From NCBI RefSeq assembly GCF_003334305.1, contig NZ_QOWS01000002.1: a DNA stretch of 64,000 nt; one strand, written 5' to 3'. Position 1 is the first letter of the stretch; every line of letters starts with the position of its first letter. Shown here piece by piece: positions 32,001 to 35,000 of this stretch. Origin of the DNA: Escherichia coli. GTDB lineage: Bacteria > Pseudomonadota > Gammaproteobacteria > Enterobacterales > Enterobacteriaceae. The position numbers are program-made.

Positions 32001-35000
32001 AATGGCGACGAAGGTTACCACCCACACCCACGGCGGCACTTCCGGGAAGAGGGCGGAGAGATAGATTTTCGCCAACAAAACGTTGATCATCGGCAAAAAG
32101 AGATAATCCAGCAGTGATGACCAGCCGACCATAAATCCGACGTGCGGGTTAATCGACTTTTGCGCGTAGGTATAGGCCGAACCGGCCTCCGGAAACTGGC
32201 GAACCAGTTTGCCGTAGCTGATAGCGGTAAACAGCACGCCCGCCAGCGCTAGCAAATAGGACGCCGGAACGTGACCGTCGCTAATGCCTGACACAATGCC
32301 AAAAGTATCGAACACAGTCATCGGCGTGAGATAGGCCAGACCCATCATTACCACCTGCCACAATTTCAGTGATTTTCGCAGACGGGTTTTGCCGGGTTGC
32401 GCAGCAATATTCAGTGGTGAATTAATAGCCATAATTGCTGCCTCCCCTGCGTAATAAGGTTTGCGGTCGTGTCGACCTGAAATCAAACCTGTTTAGCAAG
32501 GGAAGCAAAGGGGGCGGAGTCCAGTCAGTAGCAGGAGGGGCGCATACGCAGCCTCCCTCGCCATGCGGGGATTTAATCATCGGCATCATCTCATTTCCTC
32601 GTCACAGTCTTAATCGTTAACGGAAGCCCGTTGCCGCCTGCGCTCCATAACGCGACATCCGGGAAATGTCTGGATTACCAGCAAATGTCAGGCCTGGCTC
32701 CGCTCAGGCCGATGAAACACCCCCGCAAGGGGAATTACGCGTTTTTCAACATCCACTCAATTTCTGTTTCTGTGATGAGGCGCTCAAACTGCAACAGCTC
32801 ATCATTTTTACAGGCGTGATACACATGGCAAAACCGTTCGCCTAAATAGCGGCGCAGGTGATCATTCTCGATAAACTCACCCAGGGCATCGCTCTGGCGA
32901 ATCGGGAAGGGTAAGCCTTCCTGTTCCAGCCCGTTGCCTTCGACTTCTTCCTGCAACGGCAGCTCGTTATCAAGGCCATGCAAAATACCGGCAAAAATCG
33001 CTGCCATCACCAGATATGGGTTGGCATCGGCACCCGCCACGCGATATTCCACGCGGTGATTATGACGGTCGCCGCACGGAATACGCAGGGCGACGGTGCG
33101 GTTGTTATGGCCCCACGACGCCTGCGTCGGCACATACATTCCCGGCTGGAAGCGGCGATACGAGTTCACGTTTGGTGCCAGCAACGCCATCGACGACGGC
33201 ATCAGGTCAATCATCCCGGCGAGCATCTTTTTCAGCAGCGGCGAATCTTCGCCTTCCGCGTCAGAAAGCACGTTCTCGCCACGGTTATTTTGCATACTGA
33301 TATGGATATGCATTCCGCTGCCCGCGTGCTCTTCATACGGCTTCGCCATAAAAGTGGCGTGCATCTTATGCTTTTCTGCCATCAGACGCACCAGGCGTTT
33401 TAGCGCCAGCGCATCATCGCAGGCTTCCAGCACGTTATCGGTATGGTAAAGGTTGATTTCAAACTGACCCGGCGAGGCTTCGGCGACCGCACCGTCGGCG
33501 GGAATTAACTGTAACTGCGCCAGTTCATCAATATCATTGAGCACATCGGCGAAGTGGTTGAGGTTATCAACGGAGTAAACCTGGCTTTGTGTATTGCGGT
33601 CATCGGTGCCGGGCGCGCAGGGCGGTTGCAGATACCCTTCAGCGTCGCGCTGACGATCCAGTAAATAGAACTCCAGCTCTACCGCTACAACCGGGAACAA
33701 TCCGCGCTGGCGTAGCTGCTGCCACAGGCGGTTAAGAACGTTCCGCGGCTCAACGTCAAAGGGAGCGCCATCTTCATCGACCATGGTCAGGAGCATCTGA
33801 CCGATAAACTCTGGATCGGCGGCAGAAGGGGTTAAGGAACCGAGAACAGGAACACAAGTACGATCCGGCTCGCCCATTTCCTGACCCAGACCCGCTTCTT
33901 CTACTACGTTGCCCAGAATATCCATTGCAAACACCGAGGCCGGGAAATAACACCCTTTCTCCAACTTCTTCAGGCTTGAAACAGGGATACGTTTTCCACG
34001 GAAGCAACCATTCAAATCAGTAAGTAAAACATCAACATATTGCGTATTCGGGTAGCGCTCCAGGTAGCGTTTCACTTCCTGCGTAAAGGCGCTACCCCGC
34101 CTCTCTTCTGACTGCTGAACAAAGTTCTCTACTTCAACGATATTGGTTTCCATGATTCTTCGCCTTTGGTTTGTTTTCCGCTCGTTATCAAAGCGTAAAA
34201 TATAATGACCACCATTCGAATCTGTATGCAAACTAAATGTTTGTCAAATGTTAAATTGAGTTTGCAAAAATGAAAACCCACTGCTAGATTGAAAAAATAT
34301 TGAACATAAAGGTCATTTAAACCGCAGTAATGGCGATAATTTAGTCCACTTTGTGAGATTGAGCATGGAAAATATAATGAACAATCCGGTTATCGGTGTC
34401 GTAATGTGCAGGAACAGGCTTAAGGGTCATGCGACCCAGACTCTGCAAGAAAAGTACCTGAATGCCATCATCCACGCAGGCGGCTTGCCAATTGCGCTAC
34501 CACATGCGCTGGCGGAACCGTCATTACTTGAACAACTTTTGCCGAAACTCGATGGCATTTATCTTCCTGGTAGTCCCAGCAATGTGCAGCCGCACCTATA
34601 TGGTGAAAACGGCGATGAGCCTGACGCCGATCCCGGGCGTGATCTTCTGAGCATGGCGTTAATTAATGCCGCACTCGAAAGGCGCATCCCCATTTTCGCC
34701 ATCTGCCGGGGTTTACAAGAACTGGTGGTGGCAACCGGTGGTTCGTTGCATCGCAAGCTGTGCGAACAGCCTGAATTGCTGGAACATCGGGAAGATCCCG
34801 AACTGCCGGTGGAACAGCAATATGCACCGTCGCATGAAGTTCAGGTTGAAGAGGGGGGATTACTGTCTGCGTTGTTACCTGAATGTAGCAACTTTTGGGT
34901 AAACTCTCTACATGGACAAGGGGCGAAGGTCGTTAGCCCACGGTTGCGTGTTGAAGCTCGCTCGCCGGATGGCTTAGTTGAGGCGGTTAGCGTCATCAAT

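Follow-up and report, generated by a model that had tools for sequence, protein, structure and literature searches.

A conserved structured leader and the overlapping small open reading frame ymjE between puuA and puuP: a candidate module for post-transcriptional control of the putrescine importer in Enterobacterales

The DNA analysed here, hereafter the window, is a stretch of 64,000 nucleotides (nt) of Escherichia coli contig NZ_QOWS01000002.1 (assembly GCF_003334305.1), and all positions are counted from its first letter. Our subject is the spacer between puuA and puuP, the latter encoding the importer that E. coli needs for growth on putrescine. The two genes are on the minus strand, with a spacer of 302 nt between them, from 32433 to 32734; the same-strand gap of about 300 nt reported in the initial annotation is therefore accurate. 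As a 302-nt query, the spacer is found with 100% identity in many E. coli chromosomes, which identifies the window as E. coli, and the PuuA translated from the window is 100% identical to RefSeq PuuA. The spacer had been described as GC-rich and as holding no convincing open reading frame (ORF). Its GC content, 56%, does fall in the upper quartile, but it is no outlier among 302-nt windows taken across the whole stretch (51.4%, standard deviation 4.8%); puuA and puuP have 53.5%. The divergent puuA/puuD region, which is a real promoter region, has 35–39% GC, and in its composition the spacer looks like coding sequence or structured RNA rather than like a promoter region. As to the missing ORF, the spacer in fact holds ymjE, which is annotated by RefSeq and whose product has been validated by epitope tagging. 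The earlier reading overlooked the central component, namely, a translated upstream ORF (uORF) that extends over the puuP start. The spacer exists and has a function, though not in the way in which it was first framed.

RefSeq places ymjE at 32586..32422 (165 nt, 54 amino acids), and the UniProt form also begins at 32586, whereas in Table 1 the uORF is counted from the first ATG. When translated, 32586..32425 yields exactly the YmjE sequence that has been published, and this sequence is found in a cluster named “Protein YmjE”. The protein has been validated by chromosomal epitope tagging, through immunoblots of the sequential peptide affinity (SPA) tag, together with tetracycline ribosome profiling (VanOrsdel et al. 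2018, PMC6001520). It is among the least abundant of the tagged small proteins (Weaver et al., bioRxiv 10.1101/511675), and its gene is induced along with puuA and puuP (PMC10100675). The ymjE part of the spacer is thus already known, the prior description being that of a small protein “immediately upstream of puuP”. The geometry of frame and stop across genera, the leader RNA and the hairpin over the puuP Shine–Dalgarno (SD) sequence, which are the matter of what follows, are apparently undescribed. In the literature searched, no relevant paper linked puuP with riboswitches, uORFs, leader peptides, CsrA, Rho, Hfq, small RNAs or secondary structure.

Table 1. Features of the puuA–puuP spacer and its borders, in window coordinates. 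For paired segments, the 5′ arm is given first.
Feature	Position	Strand	Remarks
puuA stop codon TAA	32735..32737	−	Sequence reading and RefSeq annotation
Hairpin after puuA, UCCCC-UUGC-GGGGG, then UGUUUCAU	32720..32733	−	Terminator scan
Structured leader domain, ~135 nt	32583..32718	−	Conserved; RNAalifold, pair counts, covariance model
P0	GUUUCAU 32718-32712 with AUGAUGC 32589-32583	−	Pairs the two ymjE start codons; consensus GCAUCAU with AUGAUGC
P1	32710-32707 with 32694-32691; 32703-32702 with 32698-32697	−	Invariant loop AGCGGAGC
P2	32683-32678 with 32673-32667	−	Consensus GCWGG-N5-CCWGC
P3	CCC 32663-32661 with GGG 32629-32627	−	Encloses P4
P4	GUCGC 32656-32652 with GCGGC 32637-32633	−	Consensus GUCGC with GCGRC
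P5	Anti-SD CUUC 32626-32623 with GAGG 32600-32597	−	Pairs the ymjE SD
Alternative anti-SD tract CAUUUCC	32662..32668	−	Complements GGAAAUG 32598-32592 at the ymjE SD; mutually exclusive with P3 and P5
Second GG-N10-GC match AGGCCUGACAUUUGCU	32680..32695	−	Scan; from P1 3′ arm to P2 5′ arm
Sigma-54 candidate for ycjJ/puuP TGGAGCGCAGGCGGCA	32632..32647	−	PMC2831329; corresponds to P4 loop and 3′ arm
ymjE SD GAGGAA, within conserved ACGAGGAAAUGAG	32595..32600	−	Kept in 46 loci, including Serratia and Franconibacter
ymjE uORF	32422..32589	−	55 codons from first ATG; stop TAA 32424-32422, 8–10 nt inside puuP
AtoC ChIP-positive site GCCATGCGGGGATTTAATCA	32560..32579	+	PMC3118216; inside ymjE codons 3–9, opposite strand
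C-rich, G-poor tract inside ymjE	32500..32557	−	C/G up to 2.2–2.3
puuP SD-sequestering hairpin	32438..32508	−	Folding and covariation; 5′ arm in ymjE codons ~28–35
H1	UUCCC 32504-32500 with GGGAG 32446-32442	−	
H2	GGUUUGA 32489-32483 with GCAAACC 32464-32458	−	
puuP SD GGGGAGG	32441..32447	−	Sequence reading and hairpin alignment
puuP start codon ATG	32430..32432	−	Overlaps the last four ymjE sense codons and stop; 11-nt overlap

Scanning genomes with PuuP yielded 80 loci, in about 55 of which puuA lies directly upstream, and the 46 loci with a long spacer, all from Enterobacterales, were compared. The spacer measures 302–307 nt in Escherichia and Pseudocitrobacter, 343–426 nt in Klebsiella, Raoultella, Enterobacter, Citrobacter, Cedecea, Buttiauxella, Trabulsiella and Lelliottia, and approximately 300–415 nt in the Serratia liquefaciens group and Franconibacter; in Erwinia, Pantoea and some Serratia, it is just 108–171 nt. 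All 46 long-spacer loci contain an ORF of 55–72 codons that begins with ATG, in the conserved context ACGAGGAAAU-N-AUGAUGC, and has its end exactly 10 nt beyond the first base of the puuP ATG. There are 11 distinct lengths of this uORF, and every difference between them is a multiple of three. Between the conserved start and the end of the ORF, no stop codon occurs in the ymjE frame in any locus (0/46), as opposed to 46/46 and 44/46 loci with stops in the other two frames. Over the first 13 codons, the entropy at codon positions 1, 2 and 3 is 0.10, 0.31 and 0.85, respectively (23 distinct sequences), with wobble variation such as TTT/TTC, TAT/TAC, GGC/GGA and GAG/GAA. This wobble pattern is the signature expected if selection acts on the peptide MMQMFKYP(H/Q)GEG. 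It appears, then, that the reading frame of ymjE, its N-terminal peptide and the position of its stop are all under selection.

Conservation of YmjE at the protein level is confined to the N-terminal 13–25 residues or so, and there is no conserved C-terminal arrest motif. The remaining body of the uORF has an identity to E. coli of 0.40–0.54 between genera, which is about the divergence of synonymous sites, and its other conserved “residues” (TPLLSRF, PQT, GG..HG) are in reality nucleotides of RNA helices or of the puuP SD and AUG. A second motif, R-x-x-Y-(D)-G-P, is shared with Serratia, Franconibacter and Hafnia and has been lost in Escherichia. An NCBIfam scan of YmjE gave no family at E ≤ 1, and no Pfam domain was matched either. 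At NCBI, the products from Klebsiella and Raoultella are named “YmjE family protein”, and those from Serratia and Franconibacter are hypothetical or misnamed; the 60-amino-acid product of the Franconibacter uORF (loci L055 and L071) is called an “ABC transporter permease” by RefSeq, which looks like an annotation error.

Two further features of the uORF deserve mention. A three-codon mini-ORF, AUG-AGA-UGA (32587-32595, minus strand), overlaps both ymjE start codons; it takes the form AUG-AAA-UGA or AUG-UGA, a start–stop, in several genera and is absent from Klebsiella. Residues 24–26 of YmjE in Escherichia (32507-32515, minus strand) are PPP, or PPPP in E. albertii, and their codons lie just upstream of the 5′ arm of H1, so that a ribosome paused at PPP would cover this arm. 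Other genera have no such motif. Stalling at PPP that depends on EF-P or polyamines was rejected as a conserved mechanism because the motif is confined to Escherichia.

The SD of puuP, GGGGAGG, pairs with a UUCCC-containing sequence located some 60 nt upstream, inside ymjE. In E. coli, the segment from 32508 to 32438 folds with a ΔG of −35.3 kcal/mol (z = −7.0), and none of 200 shuffled sequences was as stable. When H1 and H2 were examined in 40 aligned sequences, 95.9% of the cells were paired, versus at most 63% with the partners slid. Compensatory changes are present in 6 of the 11 pairs, including C-G to U-A and C-G to G-C in the helix that involves the SD, and on four of five measures, among them the number of pairs changed on both sides, 0/500 shuffles reached the observed value. 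By sequence, the uORF therefore has the arrangement that is usual for translational coupling, classically known from phage MS2: a uORF with its own SD and start, a stop that overlaps the puuP start and a puuP SD that is paired inside the uORF. In the list of ORFs, puuP is extended in frame 18 codons upstream, to a TTG at 32486 inside ymjE (ORF 31047-32486, minus strand); use of this TTG as the puuP start is without evidence, and the annotated ATG at 32432 is the one with a strong SD.

The best-conserved part of the spacer is the leader upstream of ymjE. Its identity to E. coli, with gaps counted, is 0.66–0.82 between genera; for comparison, the third codon positions of puuA and puuP give 0.47–0.63, and their whole coding sequences about 0.80. 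A protein-coding cause for this conservation was rejected: whichever frame is taken, on one strand or the other, at most 15 of 39 loci keep it open. RNAalifold, run on 39 sequences of Enterobacteriaceae, yields a consensus in which the leader is a closed domain made of helices P0–P5, and 97.8% of the cells in the alignment are paired, versus 25–47% with the partners slid. Covariation is clear in P1, where C-G, U-A, G-C and U-G pairs are found, and in P2, where 19 sequences have A-U and 17 have U-A. The Klebsiella oxytoca leader, folded alone by minimum free energy, reproduces P0–P5. The G.U pairs in P0, P4 and P5 can be accommodated only by the puuP-sense strand, so that a DNA palindrome or operator is disfavored as the explanation. 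The initial annotation had suggested a structured leader with possible riboregulation of puuP, to be examined by covariance and structure prediction. This suggestion is supported by the conserved fold P0–P5 with its covariation in P1 and P2, by a conservation that exceeds that of third codon positions and by the compensatory changes in helices, as well as by the placement of the puuP SD in a covarying hairpin.

A covariance model built from the leader alignment matches the window at 32569-32722 with 159.9 bits. Weaker matches are obtained in Franconibacter (30 and 26 bits), Pantoea (29), Pluralibacter (26, partial) and Hafnia (16). In a wider alignment, to which Pantoea, Franconibacter, Hafnia and Pluralibacter were added, 14 of 31 pairs are compensatory, and 0/500 shuffles reach the observed value on any measure; this alignment was fitted to the covariance model and is biased towards structure. 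The leaders of Serratia have no covariance-model match even with the filters off, and share the anti-SD, the hairpin and the SD segment by eye only. No Rfam family matches the spacer at E ≤ 1 (window 30000-36000), nor was any match obtained in nine loci from other genera. Besides P5, a second anti-SD pairing is available, CAUUUCC with GGAAAUG, which is 97% pairable across 36 distinct sequences, yet nearly invariant, and which is the one adopted in the minimum-free-energy fold of E. coli. Two mutually exclusive conformations, both of which sequester the ymjE SD, are thus predicted to exist.

The conservation also extends to the level of E. coli strains. Of 5426 complete E. coli genomes, 4374 have the spacer and 4371 have a full-length puuP. 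An identity to the window of at least 99% is found for the spacer in 3814 of the 4374 genomes and for the puuP coding sequence (31100-32432) in only 20, so that the spacer is more conserved than the gene it precedes.

The occurrence of the leader in other gene contexts is instructive. Shimwellia has the leader (161.9 bits), followed by the uORF and puuP, downstream of an unrelated hydrolase gene, with no puuA. In Pantoea (L044, 2832-2982), the P1–P4 domain stands directly before the puuP AUG, the closing helix falls on the puuP SD and a uORF is lacking. Short-spacer Serratia (L042, L046, L051, L056 and L059) likewise have the leader fused to the puuP start and no uORF. Because of the arrangements in Shimwellia, without puuA, and in Pantoea, where the leader abuts puuP, the leader–uORF module would seem to belong to puuP and to travel with it. 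And since the leader is found upstream of either ymjE or puuP, it would act on whichever start codon follows, the uORF being a putative insertable relay. There are hints that the uORF may have arisen by duplication, or may have been lost by deletion, at the 5′ end of puuP. The Serratia uORF begins with MTAIT..., which is similar to the N-terminus of PuuP in the short-spacer species (MTISAID...). In Shimwellia pseudoproteus (L009, 2683-3011), the leader, uORF and puuP stand alone after an alpha/beta-hydrolase gene, and the uORF contains a terminator-like hairpin, GGAGTGCAGGCTCC followed by CTTTTTAT, at 2899-2912.

We propose that leader-gated translation of ymjE is coupled to translation of puuP and that this constitutes a post-transcriptional control of the putrescine importer. 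We give this proposal a probability of about 0.6. In E. coli, the RNA would most likely arrive via read-through from the PuuR-controlled puuA promoter. P5, or alternatively the CAUUUCC tract, would then pair with the ymjE SD, and the closing helix P0 with the ymjE start codons; with SD and start codons paired, ribosome entry on ymjE would be restricted by default. Those ribosomes that do translate ymjE would melt the hairpin over the puuP SD and terminate atop the puuP start, and because it is they that open the hairpin, PuuP synthesis would be coupled to ymjE translation, which would also set a limit to it. If ymjE went untranslated, on the other hand, its C-rich tract would be exposed to Rho. 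A C-rich, G-poor window is present in the ymjE body in 46/46 loci, with a median maximum C/G of 2.3, and in 33 of them it exceeds every puuP segment of equal length, which is compatible with a candidate rut-like site for Rho loading when the uORF is not translated. From the conservation, covariation, ORF maintenance and overlap geometry observed here, we infer the coupling, the default-off state and any role of Rho. Candidates for the signal are CsrA, through the GGA loops, a metabolite such as a polyamine, and the N-terminal peptide of YmjE acting in cis.

Several observations weigh against this proposal. Among Enterobacteriaceae, P0, P3, P4 and P5 are nearly invariant or changed on one side via G.U, and it is chiefly a small number of distant sequences in the model-fitted alignment that support them. 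The thermodynamic z-scores of the leader alone, −1.2 to −2.4, are unremarkable, and P0 of E. coli is weakened by a U.G pair and a U-U mismatch. Both conformations of the leader hide the ymjE SD, and there is no obvious ON state. YmjE is detectable in lysogeny broth (LB), so the block would have to be leaky, and the conservation of its N-terminal peptide suggests a sequence-specific role that would be superfluous for simple coupling. The 3′-end mapping tables of Adams 2021 contain no 3′ end for puuP or ymjE, and premature termination in the spacer is accordingly unsupported.

What other explanations may account for the conserved spacer? One is an independent promoter of puuP, or of ymjE and puuP, inside the spacer, with the conserved region as its 5′ untranslated region. 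The separate puuP promoter posited in the initial annotation is of this kind, and we regard it as unlikely. It is in its favor that puuP is among the listed sigma-54 promoters in an annotation of the RegulonDB type and that AtoC, a sigma-54 activator, gives a chromatin immunoprecipitation (ChIP) signal at GCCATGCGGGGATTTAATCA (PMC3118216). In addition, Zhao et al. proposed TGGAGCGCAGGCGGCA as a sigma-54 candidate, and ycjJ went up 5.8-fold on sigma-54 overexpression (PMC2831329). In Shimwellia, where no puuA precedes the module, a promoter is a necessity. However, both GG-N10-GC matches of E. coli coincide with RNA helices. The −12 GC of TGGAGCGCAGGCGGCA becomes AC or AU (GCGAC, GCGAU) in Klebsiella and Raoultella, as RNA pairing predicts, and the spacing of the AGGCCUGACAUUUGCU match varies from 10 to 12 nt in other genera. 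With either the spacing or the −12 GC not kept across genera, these loose matches were rejected as conserved promoters, and the strict pattern TGG-N9-TGC does not occur in the spacer. The supplementary tables of sigma-54 ChIP sequencing have no puuP-flanked site, the only nearby one being between puuD and puuA, and the AtoC site lies downstream of the proposed sigma-54 promoter. A sigma-70 consensus (−35/−10 with a spacing of 16–18 nt) is absent from the spacers of E. coli, Shimwellia, K. oxytoca and Citrobacter, although weak or activator-dependent promoters could escape this search, and no consistent result came from a custom −10/−35 search upstream of P0. Since P0 of Escherichia begins 2 nt past the hairpin that follows puuA, a promoter could not be accommodated upstream of this structured domain, and the GC content of the spacer, set against that of the true puuA/puuD promoter region, also speaks against a promoter. 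Lastly, a published deletion of puuAP led to an outcome that matched the deletion of puuA, and its authors conclude that puuAP may be an operon. Reviews and RNA sequencing papers treat puuAP as one PuuR-repressed operon; the paper that reports the deletions says that PuuP “may” have its own promoter. In E. coli, an internal puuP promoter is not established.

The remaining alternatives concern what the uORF and the leader do. YmjE might mainly be a free-standing small protein that acts in trans, modulating PuuP or PuuA, or binding metal via its Cys and His residues, the overlap with puuP being ordinary operon packing. This is somewhat improbable. In its support, it can be said that MMQMFKYP(H/Q)GEG and R-x-x-Y-(D)-G-P are kept at the amino acid level with synonymous variation, that tagged YmjE accumulates (PMC6001520; bioRxiv 10.1101/511675) and that the “YmjE family” of NCBI spans Escherichia, Klebsiella and Raoultella. 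Against it, the C-terminal two thirds of YmjE are essentially unconstrained save for the nucleotides of H1/H2 and the puuP SD, the Escherichia protein is without the second motif, in Pantoea and several Serratia, leader and puuP are present but a uORF is lacking, and YmjE is of low abundance and matches no Pfam or NCBIfam domain. Furthermore, a protein acting in trans would leave the conserved leader and SD hairpin unexplained. If the leader were instead a platform for an RNA-binding protein, the most plausible one would be CsrA, by which the ymjE SD would be either masked or made accessible. GGA motifs are kept in the P1 loop (AGCGGAGC), the P4 loop (UAUGGAGC) and the SD (GAGGAA), as a pattern in the sequence only, and are still present in the versions from Pantoea, Franconibacter and Erwinia. 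The SELEX (systematic evolution of ligands by exponential enrichment) consensus of CsrA is RUACARGGAUGU, and the GGCGUACAGGACGCC that Serratia has right before the SD closely resembles it. Nevertheless, the number of GGA triplets is about that expected from composition, and among the entries covered of the tables of CsrA cross-linking and immunoprecipitation and of ribosome profiling, puuA is marked as unbound and puuP and ymjE do not occur, which says little, since puuP is barely expressed in LB; we find a CsrA platform quite unlikely. A metabolite riboswitch, responding to putrescine or another polyamine, to a γ-glutamyl intermediate or to Mg2+, is very doubtful. A junction of several helices whose stems covary and whose loops and linkers are invariant, directly upstream of a helix that pairs the SD, is what one might look for in a riboswitch, as are two mutually exclusive anti-SD pairings, the same domain ahead of either ymjE or puuP itself and the gene context of a polyamine importer. 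Still, the leader is confined to Enterobacterales and to one gene context, both of its conformations sequester the SD, it matches no Rfam family, and no paper in the literature searched ties puuP to a riboswitch or a uORF. The binding of polyamines to RNA is non-specific, and no riboswitch is known to respond to them.

Lastly, the spacer could be a terminator followed by non-functional filler, with ymjE a fortuitous ORF. The hairpin of CCCC, TTGC and GGGG that the initial annotation placed right after the puuA stop is indeed present, its 5-bp stem consisting of T/CCCC (32733-32729) and GGGG/G (32724-32720) around the loop TTGC (32728-32725). With its U-rich tail, it fits a terminator pattern that the scan finds at chance frequency (1 match of this class found, 0.6 expected), and the folding z-scores of the leader are modest. 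Filler is contradicted by the conservation, the covariation, the maintenance of the ORF and the experimental detection of YmjE, and we consider it barely credible. A GC-rich hairpin occurs at the same place in every genus, with a different sequence and, in most cases, without a U-tract, the sequence that follows being A-rich or mixed. The stem after puuA may be a weak, terminator-like element or one that protects the 3′ end.

Turning back to the leader-gated coupling of ymjE and puuP, comparison with known systems is useful. The intergenic small ORF of Salmonella mgtC–mgtB (PMC8092293) is similar in that it also lies within an operon, is reported to promote translation of the transporter gene downstream by unfolding a structure that sequesters a ribosome-binding site, and has the other arm of that structure in translated sequence. 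By comparison, the ymjE uORFs have 55–72 codons, a conserved N-terminal peptide and an 11-nt overlap with the downstream start, and upstream of ymjE there is a conserved structured domain in which the SD and AUGs of ymjE itself are paired. Polyamine-related uORFs of E. coli and Salmonella are speFL, an ornithine-sensing arrest peptide upstream of speF-potE, and mdtU, which responds to spermidine upstream of mdtJI (PMC7815308). Like them, ymjE is a translated uORF in a long leader before a polyamine gene or transporter, has a C-rich tract for possible Rho loading and is restricted to enterobacteria. Unlike them, ymjE is without sequence similarity to either, its PPP is not conserved and no premature 3′ end has been reported. 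The speFL and mdtU uORFs end upstream of the main ORF, whereas ymjE overlaps puuP. With the enterobacterial leaders that sequester an SD, such as the mgtA leader and the CsrA-bound leaders, the puuP leader shares a multi-helix domain, an anti-SD:SD helix and GGA loops; it differs in that no Rfam family matches it at E ≤ 1, whether in E. coli or in the nine other loci.

Control of PuuP has so far been described only at the transcriptional level, by PuuR, ArcA, FNR and sigma factors. If the proposed module operates, it would add a translational layer that sets the level of the importer apart from that of the co-transcribed PuuA, with a bearing on polyamine homeostasis and toxicity, and would give the orphan small protein YmjE a concrete and testable role. 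The leader would also be a new conserved RNA structure of enterobacteria, absent from Rfam. It is tempting to go further and to speculate that the leader RNA, the nascent YmjE peptide or both are a dedicated sensor of putrescine or a Puu metabolite, by which importer synthesis would be set post-transcriptionally and independently of PuuR, although we think this rather unlikely. Were it so, ymjE would be the third polyamine-linked regulatory uORF system of enterobacteria, after speFL and mdtU, and it would join a uORF to a new class of structured RNA able to work with the uORF or, as in Pantoea and some Serratia, without it.

Two minor observations concern the surroundings of the spacer. About 914 of the complete E. 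coli genomes match just the last ~51 nt of puuP (window 31047-31150, the puuP 3′ end); given these partial matches, the puu region seems to have been deleted in roughly one sixth of E. coli, with a scar left behind. Between sapA and ymjA, at 30567-30634 on the minus strand, there is a weak Rfam match to naRNA4/CssrE, a family derived from repetitive extragenic palindromic (REP) sequences, with 25.6 bits versus a gathering score of 59.5 (E = 0.2), which is probably an ordinary REP element.

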